32,014 bases of DNA from an uncultured bacterium (lineage in GTDB: Bacteria; Cyanobacteriota; Cyanobacteriia; Cyanobacteriales; Coleofasciculaceae). Under the pieces are notes generated by a model. It saw nothing but the letters and a program-made list of their open reading frames with translations, searched no databases and had not been told where the DNA came from. Numbering within the stretch: the first letter of the stretch is position 1; each line of letters opens with the position of its first letter. This document shows positions 8,202 through 27,843 of the stretch, piece after piece. The stretch is from NCBI GenBank assembly GCA_965364435.1, contig CBDTXL010000018.1, positions 1-32,014 of the forward strand. The letters run 5' to 3'. The translations under genes and the position numbers were made by a program.

Positions 8202-8777
8202 ATGACTAATGAACAAAATTACCATCAAATCTACTTAGTCTTTACCAACGCAGACGCTAATAGCAACAAGTTCTGGCAAGCCGTCGCGCACCGAACGGGC
8301 TCCTTAGTTACATCCTGGGGGCGTGTAGGATACAAAGGTCAGACAAAATCTTATCAGTGCGGTTCTTATCAAGCGGCAGTTGCCAAGCTCAACCAACTCG
8401 CCTTAGCCAAGAAACTCAAAGGTTACATAGAGACGGTTGCCCAAATAGAATCGCAAGAACAATCGCTTATCAAGCGGGCAATTCAGCTCCTAGAACTCAT
8501 CCATCCTCACGTAGAGCAGCGGGATTTCAGCAACCGGAATTACCTGGATGCTCTCAATGAGTACCTCACGATAATTCCAACACCTCTGGGCATGAAAATT
8601 GACCCAGCCACCATCTTTTCTCTAGCTGAAGTGAATCGGCAACGAGAGAGTCTTAAACGACTATTAAAGCGAGTGCCGGATACACCTGAAACCCAATCCT
8701 CTTCCTCAAGTTGCCAATCCATTTCCCTCAAATCCATCTCAGCAAGCTTTTGGAAAGCGGCTCGCACAAAGAAGTAG
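8202..8777 (+). CDS. Standalone WGR-domain protein
   Basis: KFWQAVAHRTGSLVTSWGRVGYKGQ carries the eponymous W...G.R core of WGR domains (as in PARP1 and MolR). The rest is helical with a Ser-rich tail. Confidence 0.6.
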   Translation: MTNEQNYHQIYLVFTNADANSNKFWQAVAHRTGSLVTSWGRVGYKGQTKSYQCGSYQAAVAKLNQLALAKKLKGYIETVAQIESQEQSLIKRAIQLLELIHPHVEQRDFSNRNYLDALNEYLTIIPTPLGMKIDPATIFSLAEVNRQRESLKRLLKRVPDTPETQSSSSSCQSISLKSISASFWKAARTKK

Positions 8778-10729: not shown

Positions 10730-11086
10730 ATGCAAACCATAACTTTTGAGCCTCTTGATTCTGCACAAAATTCAGAGCAAACTCTCAGTATCAACCTGGT
10801 CAACTTAGTCGGCAATGCTGGTGCTGACCCAACCGTAAAGTACTTTGAATCGGGCCGTGTCAAATGCACTCTTACTCTAGCTGTTCGCAGTTTGAAAAAA
10901 GACCAGCCGGTCTGGTTCAATTTAGAGTTGTGGGGTAAGACCGCAGAAGTCGCGGCGAATTATGTTCGCAAAGGCAAGCAAATTGGTGTCACTGGCTCTT
11001 TGAAGATTGAAACCTGGCGGGACCCAGCTCTAGATGTTATTCGCTCCAAACCCGTAATTATCGTATCTAACCTTTACCTACTCTAA
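10730..11086 (+). CDS. ssb: Single-stranded DNA-binding protein (short OB-fold SSB without an acidic tail)
   Basis: INLVNLVGNAGADPTVKYFESGRVKCTLTLAV...W.NLELWGKTAEVAANYVRKGKQIGVTGSL matches the SSB OB-fold consensus (LVGNLG.DPE.RYT..G..V..F.LAV......W..V..WGK.AE....YL.KG..V.V.G.L). Confidence 0.65.
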   Translation: MQTITFEPLDSAQNSEQTLSINLVNLVGNAGADPTVKYFESGRVKCTLTLAVRSLKKDQPVWFNLELWGKTAEVAANYVRKGKQIGVTGSLKIETWRDPALDVIRSKPVIIVSNLYLL

Positions 11087-11092
11087 GCTCAA

Positions 11093-11389
11093 ATGAATAG
11101 CGCAACACTCTCCGGTAAAATTCTTCAAGAACCGGAAATTCGGCACACAATTGACCAGAAAACTCTGCTTCAGATGTATATTGCCATTCCGGCAAGAAAA
11201 GAGGATGAAGAACCTTCTTTGTTAAAAGTAAGCAGTTGGAATCAAACTTGTATTGAGCAGGCTCCAACTCTCAAAAATGGCGCTCAAGTTCTCATCACAG
11301 GACGACTTGGTATCAGAACTATCGACCGTCCAGAAGGGTTTAAAGAAAAGCGGGTCGAACTGGTTGCCGAGACAATTATTCCTCTGTAG
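11093..11389 (+). CDS. Second short SSB-like OB-fold protein in tandem
   Basis: MNSATLSGKILQEPEIRHT...VSSWNQTCIEQAPTLKNGAQVLITGRLGIRTIDRPEG repeats the SSB pattern. The start codon is 6 nt after the first SSB stop. Confidence 0.5.
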   Translation: MNSATLSGKILQEPEIRHTIDQKTLLQMYIAIPARKEDEEPSLLKVSSWNQTCIEQAPTLKNGAQVLITGRLGIRTIDRPEGFKEKRVELVAETIIPL

Positions 11390-12377: not shown

Positions 12378-12473
12378 CTTTTGCAAGAGCGCTTGAATGT
12401 CTGCGTGAAGCGTAGCTATCGCTCTACTCGAATTGCCTAAGACAAAAGTAGACCTCTTGCAAAAGTCATCGCT
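12378..12473. repeat. IS-end-like repeats: a 12-bp perfect inverted repeat (12378-12389 with 12454-12465) inside a 25-bp motif TAGACCTCTTGCAAAAG-TCATCGCT. The motif recurs at 23521..23546.
   Basis: CTTTTGCAAGAG is the reverse complement of CTCTTGCAAAAG. The 17-mer TAGACCTCTTGCAAAAG is identical at 12449 and 23521. Confidence 0.6.
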
Positions 12474-12553
12474 GGGGTACTATGAGGTCTGAAACATTGG
12501 CGGTCGCTTACCCGTTTTTTGCGAGCGCTCGGTCTGATTCATAAGAAAAGCTG

Positions 12554-12694
12554 ATGAAGTACGAACAAGCTCAACATCTCAAGCCAGGAGAATTCAAACG
12601 CTTGTGGGGTGTCAAAGTAGAAACTTTTCAACATCCTCACCGTAGATGCTGGCATTGCAGGGGTGAGGAGCAAGCCGGTGTATTTCTACTCTAG
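12554..12694 (+). pseudogene. Truncated DDE transposase N-terminus (IS4/IS5-superfamily type). Only ~47 codons remain before a stop.
   Basis: The translation MKYEQAQHLKPGEFKRLWGVKVETFQ is a characteristic transposase N-terminus seen in cyanobacterial IS copies. The frame ends at TAG 12692-12694 with no DDE domain downstream. Confidence 0.55.
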
Positions 12695-12824
12695 AATTCA
12701 GAAATGGCAAAAGTTTTCGGAGAGTGACAGAAGAGGGATATCAGTAATAGGGAGTTTTCCACCTGGTATCCGCATTGGTTTAAACGCGATGAAACGTCTG
12801 TAACCTAGACGGCGTGAGTTTGAG

Positions 12825-14132
12825 CTAGCAGAAACTTTTTTCATAGAAAAACTGGCTTTCTCCAAACGCTGGAGTCAGGTCTGTTAACCAAGTCGCTGCT
12901 GGATCGTACCGAGCAAAAAACGGACGCTTACACCAGTTGGGGTCTCGTCCTTGAATGAAGGACAATACAAAGACCTTTTCGCCGTTAATTTCTGTCACGC
13001 CATCGATGAGCACCTTTCCGGGCAACGCAGACATTACGGGACCCCGTACCGTTCGAGCTAAACCAGAGACTTTTTGCAAGGCGGCCTGAAAAATTTCCCA
13101 AACCCGCACCAGTGGAACTTCAAAGCAGTGCTTTGCTCCAGTGTCTCGTTCTACGAACAGGTAGTAAGGAATGCATCCCAAATGAACTTGTTCTTGCCAT
13201 AGACGAATCCATACATCTGGGTTGTCATTGATGCCTCGCATGAGTGGCCCCTGTGTCCGGATTTGTGCTCCGGTTGAACGGATACGTTGAATTGCGACTT
13301 GAGCCACTTCAGGTTCAAGTTCTTTCCAGTGGTCGTAGTGTCCTATAATGGCTAAATGCTTCCCGGCAAGGGATACTTTCTCAAACAGACGTAATAGATC
13401 GTCGGCATCGTGATCGCTCACATATCGGTAGGGCCAGTAAGCCATTGATTTAGTCCCAATGCGAATGGTTTGGATATGCTCATTAGCTGGCTCTAGTAAT
13501 GGTTCAATGTATCGCGCTAAGGCTGAAGCCGCCATCGTCATTGAATCGCCACCTGTGATTAAAACATCCGTTACTTCTTGATGCTGACGGAGATACTCTA
13601 AAAATCTTCCAGATTCCCGCGTAGCAAACTTTTGGCTTTCTGTGCCGACAAACTGAGTCCAACGAAAACAGAACGTGCAATAGGCATGGCAGGTTTGACC
13701 CGCTGTTGGGAACACCAAAACTGTTTCAGGATATTTGTGTTGAATTCCCAGCACTGGCTCACCATCTAGCACAGGGACGTTGTGCTCCATTTGACCTGCC
13801 GGATTGGGATTGAGTTGAGTACGAATCCTAGTGATTACCTCGTGCAGGAGTTCTGGTGAAGACTGGTTTTCGAGATGCCACATGACCTTATCCAAGGCTT
13901 CAGGAGATAGCATTTCCTCCTGAGGAAAGGTCAGGCGAAAGATGGGATCTTTGGGAATATTATTCCAATCGATCAATTCTTCAACTACGTAGTTATTGCT
14001 ACGGAAGGGCAGGACATGGGCAACCGCTTGCATCACAAAGCGATCGCGCGGTGAAAGCTGTTGGAGTTGAGGCAAATGTTCAATATCTTGGATACCGTAA
14101 AAGCGCTTGATTTTCGGTTGGATTGAGGACAT
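12825..14132 (-). CDS. KamA-family radical SAM protein (lysine 2,3-aminomutase-like)
   Basis: CHAYCTFCFR is the CxxxCxxC radical SAM cluster motif in the KamA arrangement. The length and N-terminal region are KamA-like. It starts 3 nt after the STAND gene stop on the same strand. Confidence 0.8.
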   Translation of the reverse strand: MSSIQPKIKRFYGIQDIEHLPQLQQLSPRDRFVMQAVAHVLPFRSNNYVVEELIDWNNIPKDPIFRLTFPQEEMLSPEALDKVMWHLENQSSPELLHEVITRIRTQLNPNPAGQMEHNVPVLDGEPVLGIQHKYPETVLVFPTAGQTCHAYCTFCFRWTQFVGTESQKFATRESGRFLEYLRQHQEVTDVLITGGDSMTMAASALARYIEPLLEPANEHIQTIRIGTKSMAYWPYRYVSDHDADDLLRLFEKVSLAGKHLAIIGHYDHWKELEPEVAQVAIQRIRSTGAQIRTQGPLMRGINDNPDVWIRLWQEQVHLGCIPYYLFVERDTGAKHCFEVPLVRVWEIFQAALQKVSGLARTVRGPVMSALPGKVLIDGVTEINGEKVFVLSFIQGRDPNWCKRPFFARYDPAATWLTDLTPAFGESQFFYEKSFC

Positions 14133-14135
14133 TGT

Positions 14136-17100
14136 TTATGCGATCGCCCCTAGGCGTTTGAGCATTTGCTGCTGTGCGGGGCTAAGACCTGTGGTACCCA
14201 TAATAACCATGCCCTCATAAATTCTGGGAGTACGCAACACTTGCCGACATTTGCCCGCCTCCACATCCCACAGACAAATCGTCCAATCTTGACTGGCACT
14301 GGCGAGGGTTTGCCCATCTGGACTAAACACAATAGACCGAACCCAATTTGTATGCCCGTGCAGTTTTTGAGAGCATCGACCTGTAGCAATTTCCCAAAGA
14401 CTGATGGTGTTGTTTGTCCCACCGCTAGCGAGGAGGCGACCATCGGGGCTAAATGCGATCGCACGAATATATCCGTCGCCCTCGTCAAATTCGCGTTCCA
14501 TTTGCTGCGTGTGAACGTGCCAAAGTCTGAGTACTGAGTCATCTCCACCAACCGCAACCAGTTGAGAGTTGGGGTGGAGTGCGATCGCCCAGACCCGATT
14601 TTTTCCCAAACTCTGCGGCTGTTTGATTACGGAAGCCTCTCCACCGGGAAGATGCCAAATCCGAATTGTTTCATCATCACTGCCACTAATGAGAATTTGT
14701 CCATCTCGGCTATAGACCACCGAGCGTACCGTATTGTCGTGTCCCTTTAGGAGGGGAAGCCATTTTTCCTGCTGAATGTCCCAGCGCTGCACCTGCCTAT
14801 CGTCGCTACCAATCGCTAGCTGGCTGCCGTCAGGACTAAACGCAACCGCACGAACCCAAGCATCCCAGCGTTTTAAGGTCTGGAATTTGCCTGTTTGAAG
14901 ATTCCACAGTCGCACCATGCGATCGTCTCCACCCGTCGCTAACAGCTTGCCATCGGGACTAAAGGCAACCGACCATATCCGTCCTTCATGTTCGCCAAGT
15001 ACTTGACAATCGCCAGTTTGAGCATCCCATAGACGAATAACTTTGTCATCGCTGCCACTGGCTAAAGTCTTCCCGTCTGGACTATAGGCAAGCGACCAAA
15101 TAGTATTGGTGTAGCCTTGCAGCACTCGAATACAGCGAAAGGTTGAGATACTCCAAAGCCGCACTGTTTTATCATCACTGCCACTGGCTAGGATTTGTCC
15201 ATCTGCCTTAAAGCCAACAGACCAGACTCGGCTATCATGTCCTTCCAGGATTTGAATGCATTGCTGTGTACACAAATCCCATAACCTCACGGTTGTATCG
15301 TCGCTGCAACTGGCAAGGTAACTTCCTGTTGAACTAAACGCGATCGCTCGAATCACATCCGTATGCCCCTGCCAAACGGCAAAACACATTCCCTTGTGAA
15401 TATCCCAAAGCTGGATAGTGCTATCATCCCCTCCACTGCCGAGGATTTGTCCATCAGGGCTAAATGCAACCGTCCAAATGCGACCGTGATGCCCTTCGAG
15501 AACTTGTCTGCATTCCCGCTTTTGAATATCCCACAATCTGATGCTACCGTCTGCGCTTCCACTAGCAAGGGTGCGTCCATCAGGGTTGAAGGCAACGGTA
15601 CGCACAAAATCTTGATGACCCTTGAATACATGCAAACTCTTGCCATCTTTCACACGCCAGAGTCGGACGGTACAATCGCTACTCGCACTTGCTAAATAGT
15701 TTCCATCTGGGCTAAACGCGATCGACCAGACCCAATTTGTGTGTCCTTCTAACGGGGCAGCGTCAAGAGGTTCACCTGTATGGACATTCCAGAGTCGAAT
15801 GGTGTGGTCATCGCTGCAACTTGCCAGAATTTGACGCTCAAGGCTGAAGGCAAGACATCGAACCCAGTTTCCGTGTGCCCGCCAAGTGAGCAGCTTTTTC
15901 CCGTTGGTTGCCTGCCATAGGTGGATCGTGCCATCACAATCACCCGCCGCTAACCAACTGCCATCGGGACTACAGGTAACACACAAGATGCTGTCTAAGA
16001 TGTCGGTAAAACTACAGCGCGTGAACGTGGAGTGAGAAAAATCAACGTTGTGCAAAGCAACTCGTTCGAGGTCGGCTTGGCAAATGTTCAGATTAGAGAA
16101 ATTACATCCCTCTAAACTAATTTGTAAATGATGCAGTAAACGCAGAATATTTGCAGCGGCATACCCGGTTGCTAAGGATGATTTTTTTAGCTCAATTGAA
16201 ACAATGCCGAGCAAAACGTTCTTGACTTGTTCCTTGCTGCCCAGCGTTGCCATGAGACGATCGCCGAGCGGTTCCAGAATTCGAGAGATTTGAGCATCTT
16301 TGACAGTCATCTCGACGTCGGATTGGGCTTTCACCAAAACGTGACTCTCAAAAACATCGATTTCTTTCGACAGAATTTCTTGATGAATTTGCTCGATGAA
16401 TCGATAGGTGACATATTCCATAATGACTGGATGCAGTGTGAATTTTGTCACTTCGGAGCGTTCATCGATCGCAATGAGGGAGCGCCGATTCAAAGATTCC
16501 AAATCTTCCATTAACTGGAGTTTTAAATCAGGCGAGACGATATCCATTTGCAAATCCTGGAGTGAGACGGGCTGCCGCTCGATCGCCAGCCAATAGAGGA
16601 TGTCTATCTCGGGTTGCGACAGACGCTCAAACTGTTGCAATAGCAAGTCACGAATATCGCCAACAAAGACGGGAATGTTTTGCTTGAGAAATGCCGCTAT
16701 ACTGCCGCGAAATAACTCTTTAATTGTCGTTGTCACAATCTTCAGCGCCAGTGGATTGCGTTCGTACCGCTCCATCAGCGCTTGCCGTTCAACTTGGGAA
16801 CTAGACACTCCTTTTGCTCGAATAATTTCCTCTGCATCCACTTGTTCAAGTCCAAGCAATTGATAGGAGCGAACGGGTAGTGTTTCCCCTTCCAGTGCTG
16901 CGATCTCTTTCGGTTTTTCTCGGCTGGTGAGAATCAAACAACTCTGATGGGAACCTTCTCCGATTCGCCGGAAAAGCTCGCCGTAGGTTTCATAACCTGT
17001 TCGATAGACTCCTGATCGCCCTTCCTGGAACAGTGATTCCACATTGTCTAGAATCAGCAAACACCGATGCTTGCGAAGTTGTTCTAGTAACTTCGTGATG

Positions 17101-17681
17101 CGAGAAGCGCTCTCACCCAGTACTGCATCCGTTTTCAATGATTTTGGGAAGCTGGAGAGGAAACTCGACAGTAGTTCCTGAAGGGAGGGTGCGTCCTTGA
17201 GCGATCGCCACACGATAAACTTAAATTCCCGCTCAATTGCCGCTTGGGTTGTTAATTTAACTGCCAAGGAGGTTTTGCCAATGCCACCGACACCGAATAC
17301 TGTAATCAATCGGCACTTATCCCCCACAATCCAATCCTGTAACAACGCCAGTTCTGCCGTGCGACCGTAGAACATCGAAACATCCGGTGCGTCGCCTAAG
17401 TCTTGAAACCGTTGAGAAATATTTTCCTGACTGGCTTGATACTGTAGCTCCAGGATGCGCTTGAACTCTGCCAACTTTCCGGGACCACTGCCTGCAATTG
17501 AGAATTTTCTGTAGACTTCGCCGAGTCGCTTGCGAACAGCAACCTCACTAATACCCAAGGTTTTTGCGATCGCCGTTGCAGACTGACCCTCTATAGCAAG
17601 TGCGATCGCCCGTAACTCTGCCTCTGATACACCGTACTTGGGTAACAACTCTGCCAGAAACCGCTCAGGGATAGAAGGCAT
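14136..17681 (-). CDS. STAND NTPase with N-terminal LuxR/sigma-70-region-4-like HTH, NB-ARC, a pentapeptide-like linker and 14 WD40 repeats
   Basis: The HTH is SATAIAKTLGISEVAVRKRLGEVYRKF. The P-loop is VFGVGGIGKTSLAV and Walker B is CLLILDNVE. RNBS-B-like CLILTSR and GLPLAL-like NPLALKIV are present. There are fourteen h-R-L-W-D/N-h WD repeat ends, enough for two 7-blade propellers. Confidence 0.9.
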   Translation of the reverse strand: MPSIPERFLAELLPKYGVSEAELRAIALAIEGQSATAIAKTLGISEVAVRKRLGEVYRKFSIAGSGPGKLAEFKRILELQYQASQENISQRFQDLGDAPDVSMFYGRTAELALLQDWIVGDKCRLITVFGVGGIGKTSLAVKLTTQAAIEREFKFIVWRSLKDAPSLQELLSSFLSSFPKSLKTDAVLGESASRITKLLEQLRKHRCLLILDNVESLFQEGRSGVYRTGYETYGELFRRIGEGSHQSCLILTSREKPKEIAALEGETLPVRSYQLLGLEQVDAEEIIRAKGVSSSQVERQALMERYERNPLALKIVTTTIKELFRGSIAAFLKQNIPVFVGDIRDLLLQQFERLSQPEIDILYWLAIERQPVSLQDLQMDIVSPDLKLQLMEDLESLNRRSLIAIDERSEVTKFTLHPVIMEYVTYRFIEQIHQEILSKEIDVFESHVLVKAQSDVEMTVKDAQISRILEPLGDRLMATLGSKEQVKNVLLGIVSIELKKSSLATGYAAANILRLLHHLQISLEGCNFSNLNICQADLERVALHNVDFSHSTFTRCSFTDILDSILCVTCSPDGSWLAAGDCDGTIHLWQATNGKKLLTWRAHGNWVRCLAFSLERQILASCSDDHTIRLWNVHTGEPLDAAPLEGHTNWVWSIAFSPDGNYLASASSDCTVRLWRVKDGKSLHVFKGHQDFVRTVAFNPDGRTLASGSADGSIRLWDIQKRECRQVLEGHHGRIWTVAFSPDGQILGSGGDDSTIQLWDIHKGMCFAVWQGHTDVIRAIAFSSTGSYLASCSDDTTVRLWDLCTQQCIQILEGHDSRVWSVGFKADGQILASGSDDKTVRLWSISTFRCIRVLQGYTNTIWSLAYSPDGKTLASGSDDKVIRLWDAQTGDCQVLGEHEGRIWSVAFSPDGKLLATGGDDRMVRLWNLQTGKFQTLKRWDAWVRAVAFSPDGSQLAIGSDDRQVQRWDIQQEKWLPLLKGHDNTVRSVVYSRDGQILISGSDDETIRIWHLPGGEASVIKQPQSLGKNRVWAIALHPNSQLVAVGGDDSVLRLWHVHTQQMEREFDEGDGYIRAIAFSPDGRLLASGGTNNTISLWEIATGRCSQKLHGHTNWVRSIVFSPDGQTLASASQDWTICLWDVEAGKCRQVLRTPRIYEGMVIMGTTGLSPAQQQMLKRLGAIA

Positions 17682-17759
17682 TGATACGACTTGTTGACCT
17701 CACAAAATATATTCCTAATTATAGGTCGCCGTTCTGCAAGCTATTTTCTCTATAAAAGC

Positions 17760-17792
17760 TTGACATCCTGAACTGCCTGTGGTGAAATATAG
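17760..17792 (+). promoter_or_regulatory. Candidate sigma-70-type promoter for the kinase operon (TTGACA -35 at 17760-17765, weak -10 near 17786-17792), overlapping the palindrome
   Basis: Perfect TTGACA. With 17-nt spacing it is followed by TGaAATATA (extended -10-like, imperfect). Confidence 0.3.
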
Positions 17793-17823
17793 GCTATCTC
17801 ACTTTGTGAGATAGCCTATATTT
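17785..17823. promoter_or_regulatory. Perfect 18-bp-arm palindrome AAATATAGGCTATCTCAC-ttt-GTGAGATAGCCTATATTT in the divergent STAND/kinase intergenic region. It may be an operator or an RNA hairpin.
   Basis: Directly visible: the arms are exact reverse complements with a 3-nt spacer. Confidence 0.7.
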
Positions 17824-18061
17824 ATGAGGATGCCGGAAACAGTCGTGCTCAAAACGTCGGCAGCACGTATCAGAGTCCCTATCTACAGTCCCTTATCTCA
17901 CTAGTCCTGTTAGGTTACTGACGCTTAACCCGCAAGATTTATCAATTAATTCTTTCAACGTCTTGAAACGACGTTGATTCCCAGGCGTTCGCTACTTTTG
18001 CAGGTACAGCTAAACAAGTAAAAGCCCCTATTTGTCTGAAACTAGAGAGTAGGCTACTCCA

Positions 18062-19393
18062 ATGCAACTTTGGACACCAAATCAACCCCTGCAAAACGGA
18101 AGATTTATTATTCAAAAACTCCTTGGAGGTGGAGGTTTTGGTGTCACTTATAGCATCATTGAATACCGTACAGGTAAATTATTTGTTATCAAAACCCTAA
18201 ACCAACAGCAACAAAGTCAAGCAGATTTCCAGCAGCGACAAGTAAAGTTTGTCAATGAGGCGCTACGGTTAGCTAGATGTAGTCATCCCCATATTGTTCA
18301 AGTCTATGAAGTTATCGAAGAAGATGGACTCTGGGGGATGGTAATGGAATATATTGATGGGCGAAATTTAGAGGTTTATATTCATGAGCGTGGGCAGCTA
18401 CCAGAGGATGAGGCACTACGCTACATTGACCAAGTGGGGAAAGCCCTAGAATATGTCCACCAACAAGGATTTTTACATCGGGATATCAAGCCGAATAATA
18501 TTCTGCTGCGCCGTAGTACCCAAGAAGCTGTACTGATTGATTTCGGTTTAGCACGCGAATTTACCATTGGTAAAACAGGAAGCATAACGAATGCCAGGAC
18601 GGAAGGTTATGCACCCATTGAACAGTATGAAAGACGGGGGAATTTTGGTTTCTATACTGATGTTTATGCCTTAGCCGCGACACTGTATACTTTACTCACT
18701 ACTCAAGTGCCTGTTCCTGCTCGTTTCAGAAAGTATGCACAATTACCGCCACCAAAGCAGCATAATTCCAAAATTAGCGACAGGGTGAATGATGCTATTG
18801 TCAAGGGAATGGCGTTGTCACCGCAAGAGCGATCGCAAACAGTGCGCGAGTTTAGACAATTGCTTGGCATTGCAACGATTGAATCATCAGACTCTATTCC
18901 ACAAGCCCCTGTATATACACCTTCCCCACCCTATTCAGAGGTTGATTACTCTAAACTAGAGGATTTCTTGAAAGCCCATCAGTGGAAAGAAGCTGATCGT
19001 GAAACTTATCTAGTGATGCTTCAAGCTGTTGGGCGTCAGAAGGAGGGTTGGATGAGAACACAGGAATTATCAAACTTTCCCTGTACTGTTCTTTGCCAGA
19101 TTGACCAACTCTGGGTAGCGTACAGCGATGATAAATTTGGCTTAAGTGTTCAGCAGAAAACCTGGCGTAGCATTGGCGGTCAACCTGACAAGTTCGATAT
19201 TGCAACCTTTTGTAAGTTTGGTGATTACGTGGGCTGGCGAAGGAATAGCGAATGGTTAAGCTACGAGCGTTTTACCTTTAGCTTAGAGGCTCGAAAAGGG
19301 CATCTTCCGGCATTGGGATATGGGGTTCAGCGTTGGGACGAATGGCAATCTAGTTGTTGGGATTTATTCCCTCGCGTTCTTCATTGTCTATAG
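18062..19393 (+). CDS. Hanks-type Ser/Thr protein kinase with a C-terminal GUN4-like domain
   Basis: Gly-rich loop LGGGGFGVTY, a VIKTL lysine, catalytic loop HRDIKPNNILL and DFGLAREF. The C-terminal HQWKEADRET...LW..YS...FG.SVQ...W...GG pattern is GUN4_N-like. Confidence 0.85.
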   Translation: MQLWTPNQPLQNGRFIIQKLLGGGGFGVTYSIIEYRTGKLFVIKTLNQQQQSQADFQQRQVKFVNEALRLARCSHPHIVQVYEVIEEDGLWGMVMEYIDGRNLEVYIHERGQLPEDEALRYIDQVGKALEYVHQQGFLHRDIKPNNILLRRSTQEAVLIDFGLAREFTIGKTGSITNARTEGYAPIEQYERRGNFGFYTDVYALAATLYTLLTTQVPVPARFRKYAQLPPPKQHNSKISDRVNDAIVKGMALSPQERSQTVREFRQLLGIATIESSDSIPQAPVYTPSPPYSEVDYSKLEDFLKAHQWKEADRETYLVMLQAVGRQKEGWMRTQELSNFPCTVLCQIDQLWVAYSDDKFGLSVQQKTWRSIGGQPDKFDIATFCKFGDYVGWRRNSEWLSYERFTFSLEARKGHLPALGYGVQRWDEWQSSCWDLFPRVLHCL

Positions 19394-19506
19394 CAATATC
19401 TTTTTAATCTTACTTTAATATTTGGGAATTTTTAAGAGTCAAAAATTGTCGATTGACGAGATTTAGTTAACACCACTTCTTTGTTGTCAAAAAGGATAGC
19501 ATTACT

Positions 19507-21858
19507 ATGAAAGCCAAGCTATTTGTCAGTATTCTAGCTGCTAGTGCAATGGCTCTAGGCAGCATTGATAGCAAGAGTCAGTCTATTGATTCAGTAAATC
19601 CTCTATTAACAACAGCTTCAGTAGAACACCCCCCAAATCTGCTGTCTAGTCAAACTCCAATTACGGTTGTATCAGTACAAACTAGCCCCGGAAACCCAAT
19701 CCATCAGCCCGTCAGAACTGCACAAATATCACTGGTTTGGCCTTTTGCTATTTTTTTTGTATTTGGAGTTCTTGCGTTTGCAGTTATCACGCCAAGAGGA
19801 GTCGTGGTAATTGGTAACAATGAAGTTGGGATTGTGATTAAAAGATTTAACCTTAATCCCTTTGTCCCTAAACTCCCTGCTGGTCAACTCATAGCCTTGA
19901 AAGGAGAAGCTGGCCCCCAAGCGAAAATCCTTACCCCTGGTTTGCATTGGGGCTATTTTCCTAGGATGTATATCATCCGTAAGGAGTCGGTGATTAATAT
20001 TTCCCCGGAAGAAATTGGACTAGTCGTTGCCAAAGATGGTGCGCCCATCTTACCGGGACAACTTTTCGGTAAGGTTATTGAATGTAATAGCTTTCAGGAT
20101 GCGTGTACGTTTATCGAAAATGGAGGTCAGAGGGGTAAACAGGTAGCAATTCTAACTGATGGCACGTACCGGATTAACACTGAACTATTTACCATTCACA
20201 AGAAGCCAGTCATCAATATTCCCCCAGGAGAAATTGGGCTAGTCGTTGCCGAAGATGGTGCCCCCATGCCACCCGAACAACTATTGGGCAAAGTTGTCGA
20301 TTGCAATACCTTTCAAGATGCGCGTGCGTTTATCGAAAATGGAGGTCAGAAGGGTAGACAGCTAGCAATTCTAACGGCTGGTACCTACCAGATTAATACT
20401 GATCTGTTCACCGTAATTACTGCTGTTAATGCCACTCAATATGGCATGAATCCCAAGGATTTACAGGTGTATACGGTGGAGGCTGGTAAGGTTGGCATTG
20501 TCACCACTTACGATGGTGTCTCAATTAAACCCGGTGAGATTGCTGGTTCGCCTGTTCCAGATCATGGCAACTTCCAAAATGGGCAAAAATTTATTGATGG
20601 AGGCGGACGTAAAGGTTTGCAAGAAGAGGTTCTACCACCTGGTTCTTGGAACCTCAATCCCTGGTTTGTCAAGGTTGAGCAAGTAGAACTGAGTGAGGTT
20701 CCTGTTGGGACAGTTGGAGTTATCATCTCCCACGTTGGCAAACCTTCTGAGAATAAGGCTGGTGTAGTTAAGCCGGGATGCAAGGGAGTTTGGAATATCC
20801 CCCTCTATCCTGGTAAGCACGTAATCAACACAAGAGTGATGAATGTGGAGATAGTTCCAACTCTTCCCATTGCACTGGACTGGTCAAACAAAAAAAAGCC
20901 GCCTACAAACTACGATGCCAACCTTCATGCGATACAGCTGCGCTCTAAGGATGGATTTTGTTTTGATATAGAAGTAACGCAAGTTATTCGCGTAGCGGAA
21001 GAAAACGCTCCCACTATGATCTATCGTGTTGGTAACACGGTTGGGGGTTCTGCTAGTAACTCCATAAAAGCTCTGATCGTAAAGGTACTACAGCCAGCAG
21101 TTAGCAATTACTTTTGTAATTCTGCCCAAAATTCTGAAGCGCTAGACTTTCTCGACAAACGTAGCGATCAACAAAGACAAGCAAAAGATTATATTAAATC
21201 AGCGCTTAGTGATTTTGGTGTTGAAGCCGTTGATACGTTGATTGGTGAGATTGACCTACCTGATAGGTTGGAAAAGATTTTAACCGATCGCAAAATCGCT
21301 GAGGAACAGCGCAAAACCTTAGAGGCTAAACAAAAGACAGAACAAGAACGCCAAAAACTTGCCCACGCAGAAGCGCTAGTGAATATTCAAGCAGATTTGG
21401 CTAAGTTTGAACAGGGTGTGAAGATTGCTGAACTCAAAGCTCTAGCAGAGAGCTATGAAACGAAGGCGAAAACAGAACTAGCTCGAGAAGAAGGTAAAGT
21501 GCAAGCCGAAGTTCTACGAGCAGTTGTTGATATCCTTGGTCATGAAAACTATGTGGATATTGAGAAACTGAAGGAGCTAGTTAAAATTAAACTTCCAGAA
21601 ATTTTGGTTAGTAATTCTCATGAGGGCGGTTCTGGATTAGCGGATATCTTTACGGCTCCGTTGTTAAGGACTCTGATAACTAGTACCATTACTTCAAGTA
21701 GTGATTTATCAGCAGCGCACCAGGTTCAAAAAACCTTAGAAACTTCATCTCCATCGACGGCACTTCCTCAAAGTTATATTGTCTGTACTCGTTGTGAGAC
21801 TAGGAATCCATTGGACAACAGTTTCTGCTTAAGGTGCGGTAATCAACTAATTAGTTGA
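19507..21858 (+). CDS. Secreted/membrane SPFH (flotillin-like) protein with an internal tandem duplication, a long EA-rich coiled coil and a C-terminal CxxC...CxxC zinc ribbon
   Basis: Signal peptide MKAKLFVSILAASAMALGS, a TM helix LVWPFAIFFVFGVLAFAVI, and RGVVVIGNNEVGIVIKRF (SPFH start). Two ~66-aa modules are ~75% identical. The C-terminus is CTRCETRNPLDNSFCLRCGNQ. Confidence 0.65.
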   Translation: MKAKLFVSILAASAMALGSIDSKSQSIDSVNPLLTTASVEHPPNLLSSQTPITVVSVQTSPGNPIHQPVRTAQISLVWPFAIFFVFGVLAFAVITPRGVVVIGNNEVGIVIKRFNLNPFVPKLPAGQLIALKGEAGPQAKILTPGLHWGYFPRMYIIRKESVINISPEEIGLVVAKDGAPILPGQLFGKVIECNSFQDACTFIENGGQRGKQVAILTDGTYRINTELFTIHKKPVINIPPGEIGLVVAEDGAPMPPEQLLGKVVDCNTFQDARAFIENGGQKGRQLAILTAGTYQINTDLFTVITAVNATQYGMNPKDLQVYTVEAGKVGIVTTYDGVSIKPGEIAGSPVPDHGNFQNGQKFIDGGGRKGLQEEVLPPGSWNLNPWFVKVEQVELSEVPVGTVGVIISHVGKPSENKAGVVKPGCKGVWNIPLYPGKHVINTRVMNVEIVPTLPIALDWSNKKKPPTNYDANLHAIQLRSKDGFCFDIEVTQVIRVAEENAPTMIYRVGNTVGGSASNSIKALIVKVLQPAVSNYFCNSAQNSEALDFLDKRSDQQRQAKDYIKSALSDFGVEAVDTLIGEIDLPDRLEKILTDRKIAEEQRKTLEAKQKTEQERQKLAHAEALVNIQADLAKFEQGVKIAELKALAESYETKAKTELAREEGKVQAEVLRAVVDILGHENYVDIEKLKELVKIKLPEILVSNSHEGGSGLADIFTAPLLRTLITSTITSSSDLSAAHQVQKTLETSSPSTALPQSYIVCTRCETRNPLDNSFCLRCGNQLIS
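20001..20412 (+). repeat. Intragenic tandem duplication (~192 bp units at 20001-20193 and 20221-20412, ~78% nucleotide identity). A more divergent third unit follows.
   Basis: Nucleotide and protein alignment by eye: EEIGLVVAKDGAPILPGQLFGKVIECNSFQDACTFIENGGQRGKQVAILTDGTYRINTELFT versus GEIGLVVAEDGAPMPPEQLLGKVVDCNTFQDARAFIENGGQKGRQLAILTAGTYQINTDLFT. Confidence 0.8.
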
Positions 21859-23339
21859 TTGAATTTAGCCTTGCCGTGCGAAACGGGAAGTATGGCGTTA
21901 TTGCGAGTGTAACTAAGTCAAACTTCAGTCGCAATAACGAACAATATCAAAGCTTATTTTTTCCCATGCCAGCTAAAATCATCCTCACTGTCACCCAAGG
22001 CAAACTCCCAGGACAACAATTTATCTTTAACTCCCGCACTACCTGTATTATCGGCAGAAGTGCAGATTGCAATCCTCAACTGCCTAATGATGAAGACCAT
22101 CGCACCATCTCCCGCTATCATTGTTTGCTAGATATCAACCCCCCTGCCATCCGGGTGCGAGACTTTGGCAGTAAAAATGGTACTTACGTCAATGGCAAAA
22201 AAATTGGACAGCGCCAAGCCGACCAAACCCCAGAAGAAGGCGCAAAACTGCAATTTCCAGAGCATGACTTGCAGGATGGGGACAAACTAGAACTGGGTAA
22301 TACTGTTTTTACCATCGATATCGAAGTTGCTCCACAGGAGATAAATATCCCCAACTTCTTTCCTGGCACTATTAATGTGAACAACGACCCAACACAACCG
22401 CCAAATTTTTGGGAAATGATTAAACACTTGTTAGGTTTAGCTGAAGGAGGTGACAATAATCTAATTGCAATTCGCGGTTATCAAATTGTAAAAAGACTAG
22501 GAAAAGGTGGATGCGGGGAAGTTTATTTAGCACAGGACAATTACTCTGAGAAATTGGTAGCACTAAAGGTGATGTTACCAACAGTAGCGGCTAGTGAGTA
22601 CGCCGTGCAGATGTTTCTTAGAGAAATGGAAAACACCAAAGCTTTACGACATCCCCATGTAGTGCAGCTAATAGATAATGGATACTCCGAAAACATTTTC
22701 TTCTTTACAATGGAGTATTGCGAAGGGGGTAGTGTATCTGATTTAATGCGCCAGCAGGGGGGACGGCTATCTATTGATATAGCAGTGCCGATTGTTCTAC
22801 AAGTTCTCGATGGTTTGGAATACACGCACAATGCCAAAATTCCCTATGTCAAACTGGGTAATGGCACCTTCGGCAAAGGCAGGGGTTTAGTTCACCGCGA
22901 CCTCAAACCTAATAATATCTTCCTTGCCTGGGTTGATGAAAAAGTTGTTGCTAAAATCGGCGATTATGGCTTATCTAAGGCATTTGACATAGCTGGTTTA
23001 AGCGGTCAAACTCTCTCTGGTACTAAAGCAGGTACTCCCGTTTTTATATCCCGACAGCAGGTGCTTAACTTCAAATATGCCCAGCCAGACGTAGATATTT
23101 GGGCTACTGCTGCTTGTCTCTACTATATGCTCACGGGAACTTTCCCCCGCAACTTCACAGGCGACGATCCATTTTTGGCAGTATTGCAAACTGACGCCGT
23201 GCCAATTCGTCAGCGAGATTCAGCTATTCCGAAACCACTGGCGGAGGTAATTGATTGGGCCTTGGTGGAGAAGCCAGAAATTTACTTTAAGAGTGCGACG
23301 GAGTTCAAGCAGGCGTTGTTGGGTGCTTTATGCTATTAA
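21855..23339 (+). CDS. FHA-domain plus Ser/Thr kinase fusion protein (an alternative start at 21966, MPAKIIL, is possible)
   Basis: FHA: IIGRSADC...ISRYHCLL...VRDFGSKNGTYVNGKKI. Kinase: LGKGGCGEVYL, ALKVM, HRDLKPNNIFL, DYGLSK. ATGA overlap with the upstream gene. Confidence 0.8.
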   Translation: MIEFSLAVRNGKYGVIASVTKSNFSRNNEQYQSLFFPMPAKIILTVTQGKLPGQQFIFNSRTTCIIGRSADCNPQLPNDEDHRTISRYHCLLDINPPAIRVRDFGSKNGTYVNGKKIGQRQADQTPEEGAKLQFPEHDLQDGDKLELGNTVFTIDIEVAPQEINIPNFFPGTINVNNDPTQPPNFWEMIKHLLGLAEGGDNNLIAIRGYQIVKRLGKGGCGEVYLAQDNYSEKLVALKVMLPTVAASEYAVQMFLREMENTKALRHPHVVQLIDNGYSENIFFFTMEYCEGGSVSDLMRQQGGRLSIDIAVPIVLQVLDGLEYTHNAKIPYVKLGNGTFGKGRGLVHRDLKPNNIFLAWVDEKVVAKIGDYGLSKAFDIAGLSGQTLSGTKAGTPVFISRQQVLNFKYAQPDVDIWATAACLYYMLTGTFPRNFTGDDPFLAVLQTDAVPIRQRDSAIPKPLAEVIDWALVEKPEIYFKSATEFKQALLGALCY

Positions 23340-23520
23340 CAATTTACCCAGAAATGTTGAACCTCTACACAAAATAACGGTCTTATTATTTCAACAAGAC
23401 CGCGAGTAAAATGCTGCCTAAATTTTATCAAAACCAATTACATAAATATTTGAGTGAAACACAGCTAATTACATTAAAATTATTAGTATGGTTGCTGCAA
23501 ATTCAGAAAACTGTAAAAAT

Positions 23521-23546
23521 TAGACCTCTTGCAAAAGCTGATCGCT
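23521..23546 (+). repeat. Solo copy of the IS-end-like motif TAGACCTCTTGCAAAAG-CTGATCGCT
   Basis: Exact 17-mer shared with 12449-12465 plus a related extension. There is no adjacent transposase. Confidence 0.55.
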
Positions 23547-23558
23547 AATACTAGCCAC

Positions 23559-24131
23559 TTATGGCTGTACAAGCAAGCCAGTAATTCGCTTTATCACTCG
23601 TAAAACCCTAAACAAATTGTTGTTTTCATCACGAGATATTGCTGTGAACTTGTCGGATAAGGCGTACTGGCGCACCTGCTGATTCAGCTTGATAAAAATA
23701 TAGTCATCGCCAGTCGTTATCATCCCAAAAAGTGGCATTTCTGAGTTAGGGTTTGCCATCATATAGGCTAAAGTCTGCGGAAGAGCCTGCAAAACATTAA
23801 CGTTGAAACGCTTCTCCTCAATAACTATCACCCAGAATTGACTTTGCACCACCACAGCGTCAATGAATCCTTCTAATAATGTGTCTCCATTGTCAATCTC
23901 CACTTTCACAAATTTCTCACCTCGAATTTTAAAAGGGAGGTCAAATAGCCCTATTAAATCCAGCAGTGGAGAAACCATAATCCTGTCAATTGTACCTTCT
24001 GTTATTTCACCATCTGCTGCATAATAGAGGTATCGATTCTTCAGTCGATTTAGGAATTCTTTTTCGCTATCAGTAATTTCTGGTAAGTCCTCAAACCATT
24101 CTGTGAAAAATTGGGTATTGTTTCCATTCAT
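23559..24131 (-). CDS. HsdR_N-like PD-(D/E)xK nuclease-fold protein. The start is taken at MNGNN (24131) rather than 24215, which would overlap tnpA.
   Basis: IDAVVV...VIVIEEKR fits the D...E-x-K core. The following LQALPQTLAYM resembles the Q...Y segment of type I restriction R-subunit N-terminal domains. Confidence 0.45.
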   Translation of the reverse strand: MNGNNTQFFTEWFEDLPEITDSEKEFLNRLKNRYLYYAADGEITEGTIDRIMVSPLLDLIGLFDLPFKIRGEKFVKVEIDNGDTLLEGFIDAVVVQSQFWVIVIEEKRFNVNVLQALPQTLAYMMANPNSEMPLFGMITTGDDYIFIKLNQQVRQYALSDKFTAISRDENNNLFRVLRVIKRITGLLVQP

Positions 24132-24193
24132 TAAGAATACGGAAAATTGCGGCAATATACGGTAGTCTATACAGAGGTCGATAAAAATGCCGA

Positions 24194-24778
24194 ATGAAAT
24201 TATCAGATTACGCAAAAGCTCAAGGCGTCAGTTACAGAACAGCGTGGAGCTGGTGGAAGAAAGGCATTATTAAGGGTCGTCAACTTCCAACAGGAACCAT
24301 ACTAGTCGAAATTGACGCAGTTTCTACATCATCCGTTGTTGCCTGTATTTATGCCAGAGTCTCCAGCTCAGAAAATAAAAGCAACTTAGATCGGCAGGCC
24401 GAAAGACTGTCTTTATATGCAACAGCCAAAGGTTATACCATCAACAAAGTTGTGAAAGAGGTAGGAAGCGGGCTAAATGACAATCGCAAAAAATTAAATC
24501 AACTTTTGCTAGATAGAAGTTTCAATGTCTTAGTAGTAGAACACAAAGATCGTTTAACCAGATTTGGTGCTAAATACATCGAAATTTTTCTGTCAGAAAC
24601 AGACAGAAGACTAGAAGTAGTTAACGGTGTTCCTGACGATAAAGAAGACTTGATGACAGATTTTGCGAGTGTCATTACATCATTTTGTGCAAGGCTGTAT
24701 GGGATGAGAAGAGCAAAGCGTAAGACAGAAAAACTCATTAGTGAACTTCAGTCAAATGGAGACAATGAGACTTGTTGA
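24194..24778 (+). CDS. tnpA: IS607-type TnpA serine recombinase (MerR-like HTH plus resolvase catalytic domain)
   Basis: MKLSDYAKAQGVSYRTAWSWWKKG is the typical IS607 TnpA HTH start. IYARVSSSENK carries the catalytic serine. Confidence 0.85.
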   Translation: MKLSDYAKAQGVSYRTAWSWWKKGIIKGRQLPTGTILVEIDAVSTSSVVACIYARVSSSENKSNLDRQAERLSLYATAKGYTINKVVKEVGSGLNDNRKKLNQLLLDRSFNVLVVEHKDRLTRFGAKYIEIFLSETDRRLEVVNGVPDDKEDLMTDFASVITSFCARLYGMRRAKRKTEKLISELQSNGDNETC

Positions 24779-25985
24779 AAAGCACGTAATTCGGAAAGGG
24801 AGCCAGGAAGGGAAAGAGATTGACGGCTTAGCGTTTAAGTCCAAAAATCTCTATAACCGAGCTAACTACGAAATTCGTCAGCATTTCTTTGAAACCAGTC
24901 AGGTTCTCTCTTACAATGAGATGGCATCTCGGATGCAAGCAGAGGAATCGTATTGCGAATTACCCCGCAAAGTCTCTCAGCAAGTTCTTCGTTGTTTAGA
25001 CAGAAACTGGAAGGCGTGGAAAGAAGCAGATAAAGCTTACAAGAAAACCCCCTCTAAGTTCTTGGGAAAGCCTAGACTCCCTAAATACAAAGATAAGGAG
25101 AAAGGGCGCAATCTCTTGATTTACACCATCCAGGCTATTAGCTCTAAAGAGCTGAAGAGGGGATGGGTAAAACCATCGGGGACGAACTTGATGATTCTTT
25201 GCAATAAGCAGAATATCAACGAAGTAAGGATTATCCCTCGTCTCAACTACTACGTGGTTGAGATAATTTACGAGCAACCCGTTCAACAATTAGTGGACGG
25301 TGAAGATGTAGCAGGCGTAGATATTGGTCTTAATAACTTGGCGGCTGTAACTTCAAATCAAAAAGGTTTCAAACCTTTCCTGATTAATGGCAGACCCGTT
25401 AAAGCGGTTAACAACTTCTACAACAAAAAGAAAGCTGATCTTCAGTCTCATCTCAAGGGAAACCGAAAAACCTCCAACAGGATTCAACGCTTATCAACTA
25501 AGCGAGGATTCAAGATAGATGACTATCTCCATAAGTCCAGTCGTTTCATTATCAACCGCCTAGTTGAGAGCAATATCTCAACTCTTGTAATCGGAAAAAA
25601 CGATAACTGGAAACAGGAACTCAATATTGGTAAGGTCAATAATCAAAATTTTACCAGTGTTCCTCATTCTAGATTCATTGAGATGCTGACTTACAAAGCT
25701 CAATTGGTTGGCATTAAGGTCGTCATTACCGAAGAATCCTACACTTCTGTTTCTAGCTTCTTGGATGGAGATCCTCTTCCTGTTTACGGAACAATGGAAG
25801 CTAAAACTGTAAAGTTTAGCGGTCGTCGTCTTAAGCGCGGGTTGTACAAATCAAAAAACGGCATTAAATTTAACGCCGACGTGAACGGAAGTTACAACAT
25901 TATCCGCAAAGTAGTCCCAGATGCTTTTTGCAATGGGATAGAGGGTGTAGTAGTTCACCCAGTTAAGATTACTCTTGCAAACTGA
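24741..25985 (+). CDS. tnpB: TnpB (OrfB) RuvC-like RNA-guided nuclease homologue; the zinc-finger segment appears to be absent
   Basis: RuvC-I GVDIGLNNLAAV, RuvC-II EESYTSVSS and RuvC-III NADVNGSYNIIRK. There is no CxxC...CxxC between RuvC-II and RuvC-III. Confidence 0.85.
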   Translation: MNFSQMETMRLVEKHVIRKGSQEGKEIDGLAFKSKNLYNRANYEIRQHFFETSQVLSYNEMASRMQAEESYCELPRKVSQQVLRCLDRNWKAWKEADKAYKKTPSKFLGKPRLPKYKDKEKGRNLLIYTIQAISSKELKRGWVKPSGTNLMILCNKQNINEVRIIPRLNYYVVEIIYEQPVQQLVDGEDVAGVDIGLNNLAAVTSNQKGFKPFLINGRPVKAVNNFYNKKKADLQSHLKGNRKTSNRIQRLSTKRGFKIDDYLHKSSRFIINRLVESNISTLVIGKNDNWKQELNIGKVNNQNFTSVPHSRFIEMLTYKAQLVGIKVVITEESYTSVSSFLDGDPLPVYGTMEAKTVKFSGRRLKRGLYKSKNGIKFNADVNGSYNIIRKVVPDAFCNGIEGVVVHPVKITLAN

Positions 25986-26130
25986 TTTCCGTATTTTTCC
26001 GTGAAATTAGGAACTATCAGCCGTCTGGCTTAGATTGAACTTGTCGTGCGCCTCATTCAGGTTAGTAATCGCTTTGGTAATCCCAACTGTTTGAACCATA
26101 ATTTATCAGCCTGTTGTTAACCCTCCATCT
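25900..26130 (+). ncRNA. Predicted location of the TnpB-associated omega/right-end RNA (by analogy only)
   Basis: In characterised TnpB elements the guide RNA scaffold overlaps the 3' end of tnpB and the right end. No structure was verified here. Confidence 0.2.
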
Positions 26131-26307: not shown

Positions 26308-27039
26308 ATGAACCACCATACCCAAAACTTAATAGCCACCCTCAAACATTTGCCGCCTGACTGGCCCCTGGTGCCGACCAACTATAAAAAGCCACTCGGC
26401 TACTTTTGGCAGACCAGACCCTTTGTGCCTGGTCAGCTAATAATCGGGCTAATCGCAGGTGGTGTAACAGTCCTAGACAAAAATCGGCAACCTTACTTAG
26501 TCATGCCGACCGGGATTGGACTCCTGACTGGACACCCGATCCAAGGCGGCAGCCAAACCTACTATTTGATGGCACTTGACCAAGACGGAATCAGTGCTTC
26601 ATTAAAAATACTTGAACTATCAGAAGGTACTGGACTTCCTCACACGATCGCTTTTACTTCCGGGCGACCTGGACGATGCCAGTATCTTTTTGTCGTTCCA
26701 GCTGAAGACAGTTCACTACTGAGGACTCGGAAAATCAGCACAGGCAAGGACGAAGCCTTGGAACTGAGGTGGCTCGGTTGTCAATCAATCCTACCTCCGA
26801 GTTTACATCCCACGACGGGGCAATACCACTGGTGCGATGGATGTTCAATTACCACGACTCCAGTGGCGATTGCTCCATACTGGTTGCTTGCTCTGATGCG
26901 AATACAAGACGAAACCAAGGCGACTTTCAAGCCAAAACACAAACCTACAAAAACTAAGCCAAATTTGGGAAAGCGGATTCAGCAAAAGCGACAACTACGA
27001 AAATACCCAGTCAAAAAAACCAATTCAAAAAGGCACTAG
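26308..27039 (+). pseudogene. Prim-Pol (archaeo-eukaryotic primase superfamily) domain: the N-terminal part of a primase that has been split by a frameshift
   Basis: WPLVP..YKKPLGYFWQTR, ..LLTG.., YLMALDQDG (the D-x-D) and TSGRPGRCQYLFVVP (the T-x-GG-H-YF equivalent). The ORF-track N-terminus at 26131-26307 is probably not coding. Confidence 0.6.
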
Positions 27040-27779
27040 AAGTTCTCAAACTCATCTCGCCGGAACGAGCTGACGACTACACTGATTGGATATTAGTCGG
27101 CATGGCGCTCAAATCAGTGAGCGAGGAGCTGCTACCTGCCTGGGACAAGTGGAGTCAGCAATCAGCCAAATACAAACCAGGGGAGTGCGACTATAAGTGG
27201 CGATCGTTCCGAGAAAAAGGCGTCACGCTTGGCACTCTCTATTATTTTGCCCGCCTCGATCTGGCTAGAGCTACAGGACAACGGGACAATAAATTTCTCC
27301 CTTCAAGTCATAATTTCAGTGAGTTCGAGAGTATTGACAGTGCTAACGCACCAAAACATTTGAACTTAATCGGATACAAAAATATGGCTACTACAACACG
27401 CGAGCGCAAATCTACCAAAACTATCGAAGCTATCGACACTGAAGCCCTAGCCGAGTACAGCACAGACAATTACCATGAGAAGCTCTATGGAACTGTGTAC
27501 TACACCATCCGCGAACTGCAAGGCTTGTCGGCAAAGCGTTCTCTTGGTGACTCCTTCTCCTGGGATGAACTTAAAGTGCGCTTTGAAACAGTCTTCGGCA
27601 AAGTCGAGGAGCGCCGCTACTCCCTTGAGCAACTCTTAGAATACGCTAATCGCAAGTTCGGCAAGTCTTTAGAGCAGTTGCTTGAGATTAACGATAAATC
27701 CTGGGAGCGCCGCCGCGAATGGAAAGCGAAAGCCGCTCATCAGAGTATGAACGACATAGCGGATTTGCCTGAGTTCTAA
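26958..27779 (+). pseudogene. PriCT-2 (primase C-terminal) domain plus a C-terminal region, in the -1 frame relative to the Prim-Pol ORF
   Basis: ERADDYTDWILVGMALKSVSEELLPAWDKWSQQSAKYKPGECDYKWRSF matches the PriCT_2 consensus (DY..W..VG.AL......F.LWD.WS..S.KY....C..KW.SF). The frame is open from 26958. The first ATG (27102) lies inside the motif. Confidence 0.6.
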
Positions 27780-27808: not shown

Positions 27809-27843
27809 CCTCCTTACTTCACCAGTAAGGGGGTCTTTTTTTT
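27809..27843 (+). terminator. Rho-independent terminator after the primase region
   Basis: ~9-bp stem (27809-27817 pairing with 27825-27833) with a 7-nt loop, followed by TC and T8. Confidence 0.6.

Follow-up and report, generated by a model that had tools for sequence, protein, structure and literature searches.

How is a primase produced when its catalytic domain and its helical domain are written in different reading frames? The question is raised by positions 26308-27779 of a 32,014-nucleotide (nt) stretch of DNA (the window; contig CBDTXL010000018.1 of assembly GCA_965364435.1, forward strand; ENA metagenome scaffold SHIN18-1_SAMEA104707370 scaffold_595) from an uncultured cyanobacterium placed in the Coleofasciculaceae, where the replication primase of an Allocoleopsis-like mobile element is split between two overlapping frames. 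After comparing the locus with its relatives, we consider it probable that this primase is expressed through programmed -1 ribosomal frameshifting at a slippery heptamer, G_GGA_AAG, in the linker between the two domains. All of the evidence is comparative, and a single shallow clade supplies it.

An ATG at 26308 opens a zero-frame open reading frame (ORF) of 243 codons (26308-27039; this and all other features of the locus lie on the + strand) that ends at a TAG at 27037-27039. Its 27.2-kDa product consists of an archaeo-eukaryotic primase (AEP) catalytic domain with a basic tail; it matches the Pfam family Prim-Pol (PF09250, E=7.5e-20, residues 18-192), and the conserved residues D91, D93 and H167 of the acidic DxD and His motifs are invariant in the alignments. 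The PriCT_2 helical domain (27039-27251; PF08707, E=9.4e-25, positions 3-77 of the 77 in the hidden Markov model (HMM)) sits in the -1 frame and shares a polypeptide with Prim-Pol only if a frameshift happens. That frame is open from 26958 to a TAA at 27777-27779, and the TAA that precedes it (26955-26957), kept in all 15 distinct relatives, sets the 5' boundary for a productive shift into -1. The two frames thus overlap over 82 nt (26958-27039), a segment that includes the sequence GTC AAA AAA ACC with a run of seven A's (A7) at 27013-27019. None of the 15 variants has an ATG, GTG or TTG in the -1 frame between 26958 and 27101. The earliest ATG (27102-27104), which gene finders take as the start of a 225-amino-acid (aa) ORF, corresponds to HMM position ~24 of PriCT_2 and encodes the family-conserved Met of the VGMAL motif, leaving the first 21 PriCT_2 codons (27039-27101) 5' of any canonical start. 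In all of this the original prediction was accurate: the frames and boundaries that it gave for the two domains, the 82-bp overlap with its A7 run and the lack of a plausible PriCT_2 start ahead of an ATG inside a conserved motif agree with the sequence, its translations and both Pfam matches.

It had also held that the two domains are normally fused, and the family at large bears this out. With the conceptual fused protein as query, we retrieved 72 homologues of at most 51% identity (44-51% for the best), nearly all of which have Prim-Pol and PriCT_2 in a single polypeptide. Among the matches listed from metagenomes and GTDB genomes were 160 further loci, the JGI metagenome relatives all being at most 50% identical; 158 of the 160 carry both domains, and in 156 of these 158 non-clade loci both lie in one frame. 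The two exceptions, L020 and L085, were considered as independent recurrences of the split and dropped: both contigs are short and have N's or multiple frameshifts within the catalytic domain, which points to errors or decay. By this comparison the single frame is the ancestral state. Three more distant homologues, P0055 (Hydrococcus sp. CSU_1_8), P0054 and P0065, are annotated with a Prim-Pol domain only, and the C-terminus of P0055 resembles an out-of-frame translation of the PriCT_2 region at a position that differs from that in the window clade. A scan of IMG/VR found no relatives, and searches of PLSDB and phage DNA returned short PriCT_2 matches only, or none.

Within the window clade, the split is a shared and stable feature. 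At 90% identity, the 243-aa half falls in a cluster of 16 proteins drawn from NCBI, JGI, ENA and Logan, most of them exactly 243 aa long and one of them, WP_333475856.1, from an Allocoleopsis sp. metagenome-assembled genome; the 225-aa ORF has a cluster of four members, each of 225 aa. We compared the DNA of 21 clade loci, comprising 15 distinct sequences with 90-96% nucleotide identity from ~20 samples and several assemblers. The TAA at 26955, the TAG at 27037, the ATG at 27102 and the final stop occupy the same positions in all 21. The only indel in the overlap is a 6-nt duplication (AATTCA) in L013 (~4715-4720), aligning between window positions 27021 and 27022; it adds NS in frame 0 and FK in frame -1 and, being a multiple of three in length, keeps both frames. 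Because an identical structure recurs in ~20 independent samples, several assemblers and 15 sequence variants, the sequencing or assembly error that the original prediction had allowed for is excluded; the split is, as read from these alignments, inherited and maintained rather than accidental.

Both halves of the gene are also under purifying selection. Substitutions were counted by Fitch parsimony on a neighbour-joining tree of the 15 sequences, and pairwise Nei-Gojobori estimates agree with the resulting ratios of nonsynonymous to synonymous rates (omega). Prim-Pol (26308-26964, frame 0) has accumulated 146 synonymous and 68 nonsynonymous changes (omega 0.15, p=6e-42), PriCT_2 downstream of the ATG (27102-27251, frame -1) 35 and 15 (omega 0.12, p=2e-13), and the 3' region (27384-27776, frame -1) 86 and 51 (omega 0.16, p=7e-26). 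In the linkers omega is higher: in frame -1, 26973-27038 shows 6 synonymous and 15 nonsynonymous changes (omega 0.71, p=0.32), and the connector at 27252-27383, predicted to be disordered and open in the -1 frame in all relatives, shows 20 and 51 (omega 0.70, p=0.11). The zero-frame tail after the heptamer (26974-27036) has 4 synonymous and 17 nonsynonymous changes (omega 1.25, p=0.74). From 27102 to 27383, the 121 inferred changes include no stop, against 7.2 expected (P ~0.001).

Changes were also counted in the stretch of PriCT_2 that no canonical start can reach. For codons 27039-27101, frame -1 has 12 synonymous against 11 nonsynonymous changes (omega 0.28, p=0.0025), and when this stretch is translated in the two alternative frames, omega is 1.07 and 3.24. 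Fisher tests separate the segment from the linkers (p=0.046) but not from the remainder of the PriCT_2 domain (p=0.19). Of the 11 nonsynonymous changes, 5 hit a single codon, the x of ADDYxDW, which is variable in fused homologues too. We take this as a sign of purifying selection on codons that lack a start, which the small counts make supportive rather than conclusive.

A candidate for the site of the frame change emerged from the same comparison. The heptamer G_GGA_AAG at 26967-26973 lies inside the overlap, ten nt past the TAA of the -1 frame; it is in phase with the codons of Prim-Pol (TTG GGA AAG, with GGA from 26968) and identical in all 21 clade loci. Together with the 19 nt before it, it forms a conserved 26-nt cassette (26948-26973) in an otherwise variable inter-domain linker: 1 of 26 columns varies, compared with 28 of 108 in the remaining linker (Fisher p=0.008, with boundaries chosen post hoc), and the sole variable column is a synonymous TTG/CTG change that keeps the G of the heptamer. 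The chance of an in-phase X_XXA_AAG in the overlap is 0.9% by window-wide frequency and 4.6% in local-composition shuffles. GGGAAAG is the slippery sequence of lambda G/GT (PMC3296357), and G_GGA_AAG has been called highly shift-prone in E. coli (PMC5009743). A second in-phase heptamer, A_AAU_UUG at 26961-26967, was dropped: several relatives have AAT CTG there, and UUG is a poor A-site codon. In-phase X_XXA_AAG also occurs in 7 of 148 distinct linkers of fused homologues (4.7%), every time as AAAAAAG. These seven single-frame genes (L028, L038, L054, L068, L069, L079 and L090) match the chance expectation of the shuffles; if any of their A_AAA_AAG sites were used, the result would be dnaX-like truncated Prim-Pol products.

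We infer from these sequences that ribosomes shift at the heptamer, in the following way. Most would stay in the zero frame, stop at TAG 27037 and release the 243-aa catalytic protein with its basic tail. A minority would slip one nucleotide back on G_GGA_AAG, tRNA-Gly re-pairing from GGA to GGG and tRNA-Lys from AAG to AAA, at a position in the disordered inter-domain linker. Shifted ribosomes would then read on in -1 through PriCT_2 and, meeting no stop, through a downstream small-protein module, yielding a full primase of 490 aa, 55.6 kDa and three modules. The original prediction had anticipated a fused product of ~55 kDa; the predicted mass agrees with that figure and includes an additional 3' module that had not been part of the idea. 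At the predicted junction, KTKPNLGK is followed by ADSAKATTTK, and the inter-domain linker has a length normal for the family. The peptide ADDYTDWILVGMALK, which spans Met266, belongs to the predicted trans-frame product.

An AlphaFold2 model of this trans-frame protein (46-sequence alignment, mean predicted local distance difference test (pLDDT) 78.8) places Prim-Pol at residues 1-200 (pLDDT >=95) and PriCT_2, as six helices, at residues 236-323 (pLDDT 95-98). Between them runs a low-confidence linker (residues 201-235) with the shift site at residues 221-222, and a further stretch with pLDDT <50 (residues 331-377) falls in the fast-evolving connector. Met266, encoded by the ATG at 27102, is in the middle of the helix formed by residues 258-271. 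As modelled, a protein started there would lack ~2.5 of the six helices (1, 2 and half of 3) along with the ADDY..W..VG motif. Foldseek found the closest solved structures in pRN1 ORF904 (3m1m, 9aam), NrS-1 and the African swine fever virus (ASFV) PrimPol, with 7rr3 and 8iqh among the matches; a sequence profile search of PDB had no match.

Several observations weigh against frameshifting at this site. The clade is shallow (at least ~90% nucleotide identity), and invariance of the heptamer is weak evidence when taken alone, with a probability of 0.8^7, or ~0.2, by chance. The signal in 27039-27101 comes from 23 substitutions, with 5 of 11 nonsynonymous changes at a single hypervariable codon, and three nonsynonymous changes are D/N exchanges within the conserved ADDY motif itself. 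Neither a stem-loop nor a pseudoknot was found downstream of the heptamer: RNA structure there is not significant in a single-sequence fold (minimum free energy z=0.22), and RNAalifold on 10 variants gave no covariation or compensatory pairs. An Rfam search of the whole window had no match, and no upstream Shine-Dalgarno-like stimulator is visible on reading the sequence. Moreover, many cyanobacteria have a tRNA-Lys(CUU), with which AAG might slip less readily than it does in E. coli. Lambda G/GT functions without stimulatory elements at a few per cent, so that their absence here lowers the expected efficiency more than the plausibility of a shift. Since no stimulator was found, the efficiency would probably be a few per cent, by analogy with lambda G/GT.

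Other explanations have to be set against this one. Least credible, to the point of being nearly dismissible, is that the gene is dead or an artefact, a frameshift mutation or assembly error having inactivated the primase and left PriCT_2 as a decaying remnant. Such a reading can appeal to the family rule of fused single-frame genes and to the existence of frameshifted copies from poor sequence, L020 and L085; it fails on the recurrence of one structure across ~20 independent samples, several assemblers and 15 variants, on omega values of 0.12-0.16 across all three protein modules, on the missing stops in 27102-27383 (0 against 7.2 expected) and on an overlap whose sole indel is a multiple of 3. 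The pseudogene option of the original prediction can therefore be set aside, omega being 0.15 for Prim-Pol and 0.12 for PriCT_2 with p<1e-12 for both. Very improbable, too, is that the A7 run mediates the frame change, whether by transcriptional slippage, ribosomal slippage or a mutational phase-variation switch. The run does lie within the overlap, low-level shifting and slippage are known for A_AAA tetramers and long A runs (PMC4066793; PMC5009743), and it could add slight extra shifting in the sub-clade that has it. Yet A7 is confined to that one sub-clade (the window, L013, L175-177, L179/180 and L181) and is interrupted in L003, L004, L006-L012, L094, L174 and L178, where the split is kept. 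Eight of the 15 distinct sequences read CAGGAAAAC or CAAGAAAAC at this site (AGGAAAA or AAGAAAA), with the same 243-aa and -1-frame layout under purifying selection. None of the 21 clade loci has an A6 or A8 length variant or a fused in-frame allele, the run is out of phase for a tandem-slippage heptamer (in GTC AAA AAA ACC the preceding base is C), and seven A's are short for efficient transcriptional slippage. Thus two proposals of the original prediction, slippage on A7 and a phase switch, fall to the relatives; its more general suggestion of programmed slippage stands as the best overall account, with the site moved to G_GGA_AAG, 40 nt upstream of A7. The case carries a caution, in that the conspicuous homopolymer was a bystander and the real candidate signal was found only through comparison of relatives.

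A more serious contender, though in our judgement an unlikely one, is that no recoding takes place: Prim-Pol (243 aa) would be made alone, a second -1-frame protein would be initiated independently, and the two would act together in trans, as catalytic and helical subunits or domains do in other AEP primases. The second start would be either the ATG at 27102, giving 225 aa with a truncated PriCT_2 and the small module, or a rare non-canonical start upstream, such as the conserved ATA at 27003. Gene callers annotate exactly this layout in every relative, the ATG at 27102 is conserved, the part of PriCT_2 after it is strongly selected (omega 0.12), and the lack of a frameshift stimulator suits the idea. 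The catalytic and helix-bundle domains of some plasmid primases, RSF1010 RepB' among them, can function in trans, which lends it a precedent. Against a start at 27102, the Met is the ancestral, family-conserved residue of VGMAL and not a newly evolved start; it lies mid-helix, and beginning there loses 23 of the 77 HMM positions including the ADDY..W..VG motif and fails to explain the -1-frame-specific purifying selection on codons 27039-27101. No Shine-Dalgarno-like sequence precedes it, a weak point, as other genes here also have none. Were translation to begin at a non-canonical codon, the selection would be accounted for, but the invariant heptamer in its correct phase and the conservation of the cassette would be left unexplained. 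The original prediction had envisaged that orthologues might show two ORFs with independent starts; relatives do have the same two-ORF layout, and they have no independent canonical start. Programmed frameshifting, by comparison, accounts for why the split is conserved, why codons without a start are under selection, why an invariant heptamer sits in phase within a conserved cassette and why the junction falls in the disordered linker.

If ribosomes do shift here, the conserved -1 frameshift would set the ratio of bare Prim-Pol to full three-module primase, a dnaX-like isoform switch that we think somewhat favoured by the evidence, and we infer that the two isoforms have different roles. To our knowledge, and within the searchable literature, recoding of any kind has no described precedent among archaeo-eukaryotic-type primases: full-text searches for frameshifting together with primase, primase-polymerase or PriCT-2 found no such case, and the part of a 2016 recoding review that was covered makes no mention of primase. 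The mechanism is of a known kind and, as far as could be established, the gene family is new for it. Apart from those of insertion sequence (IS) elements, phage tail chaperones, dnaX and a small number of further genes, known examples of -1 frameshifting in bacteria are few. Were the frameshift real, annotation pipelines would be wrong to describe the replication gene of this element as a pair of unrelated ORFs (the 243-aa half appears at NCBI as a complete 'bifunctional primase/polymerase'), and the locus would offer a natural system for studying the function of a catalytic Prim-Pol core with and without its helical PriCT_2 domain.

The 3' end of the -1 frame has a history of its own. A conserved small-gene module (27384-27779), 131 aa from a conserved ATG at 27384, is in frame with PriCT_2 and follows it with no stop in between in all 15 variants. 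In relatives from Tolypothrix, Scytonema and Plectonema and in a single metagenome contig (tblastn span for L095-L100 and L014; ORF inspection for L096, L100 and L014), its counterpart stands alone as a gene of 126 aa, MAPRKST...IDTSALGEYNTSDY..., with a Met that aligns to the ATG at 27384 (L096 3961-4341; L100 3961-4341; L014 1485-1865). In this Nostocales-type layout, a single-frame Prim-Pol+PriCT_2 gene of 289/290 aa is followed by a 93-nt gap and then by the 126-aa gene, after which comes a DUF4326 gene in L096 and L014 and a different 500-aa ORF in L100. Selection on the 3' 131 codons, initially counted in support of fusion, was dropped from that argument, the module being an independent gene in the Nostocales relatives, and a separate translation start at 27384 is possible. 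The small protein is predicted to form three long helices, has no Pfam match, and follows the primase in both Allocoleopsis-like and Nostocales elements. A terminator-like 10-bp hairpin with a T run (TCTTTTTTTT, 27809-27843, a consensus match only) lies 30 nt past the small-gene stop, which suggests that Prim-Pol and PriCT_2 are transcribed together with the small gene as a single unit.

The primase is part of a mobile-element replication module that comprises two single-stranded-DNA-binding protein (SSB) genes, Prim-Pol/PriCT_2, the small gene, a DUF4326 gene and a Sipho_Gp157 gene, with ParA/ParB upstream in relatives. The two SSB genes (10730-11086 and 11093-11389; 118 and 98 aa) encode complete OB folds, lie 6 nt apart and are kept as a pair in every relative that covers the region. 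An IS607-like element (24119-26014), with a serine recombinase/Resolvase ORF (24194-24778) and a TnpB/OrfB_IS605-Cas12f-like ORF (24741-25985), has inserted at the 5' end of a divergent gene (23559-24215), 293 nt ahead of where Prim-Pol starts. Because it is absent from the same spot in the relatives compared (L013, L179 and L004), the insertion is recent; it lies in the likely primase promoter region and is unrelated to the primase split.

A cargo block of ~11 kb (12450-23534), absent from the closest relative, L013, sits between a Uma2 gene and the gene upstream of the primase and encodes a 1181-aa WD40-repeat protein, a 435-aa protein without a Pfam match, a Ser/Thr kinase with a GUN4 domain, an SPFH/Band-7 protein and an FHA-kinase. 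An operon at 39-2805 encodes Prok-E2_D, a Prok-JAB deubiquitinase-like protein, a ThiF/E1-like protein and a 187-aa ORF without a Pfam match. These are parts of a prokaryotic ubiquitin-like conjugation system that resembles E1/E2/JAB modules described as anti-phage, and a different E2/JAB/ThiF/Multi_ubiq/BubE set adjoins the primase in L003 and L178. At 8202-8777, a 191-aa protein with a WGR domain and part of a PARP regulatory domain, without the catalytic PARP domain, is kept at the same position in L003 and L004.

Among known systems, lambda G/GT has the identical heptamer and is likewise located on a mobile element. In lambda, as proposed for the primase, the short product is abundant, the -1 shift lengthens it into a scarcer fusion, and this works without a strong stimulatory RNA structure. 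The proteins are from unrelated families, a tail chaperone in one case and a DNA primase in the other, and the lambda shift is experimentally proven and conserved across very divergent phages, whereas the primase case is known from the sequence of one shallow clade. E. coli dnaX (A_AAA_AAG) encodes a replication protein with two isoforms, with and without C-terminal domains, whose ratio is fixed by -1 frameshifting on an X_XXA_AAG heptamer, as would also hold for the primase. In dnaX, the shift yields the shorter product (gamma rather than tau) and is boosted by an upstream Shine-Dalgarno-like element and a downstream hairpin; in the primase, it would yield the longer product, and no stimulators were found. 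The OrfA/OrfAB transposases of the IS3 and IS1 families share the overlapping ORFs fused by a -1 shift, the full enzyme as a minor trans-frame product and the mobile-element setting, but they are different proteins, and IS elements usually have a downstream structure. The single-chain Prim-Pol+PriCT_2 primases of cyanobacterial plasmids and elements have the same two domains in the same order; unlike the split primase, they are encoded in one frame, and their Nostocales representatives carry the small protein as a separate gene.

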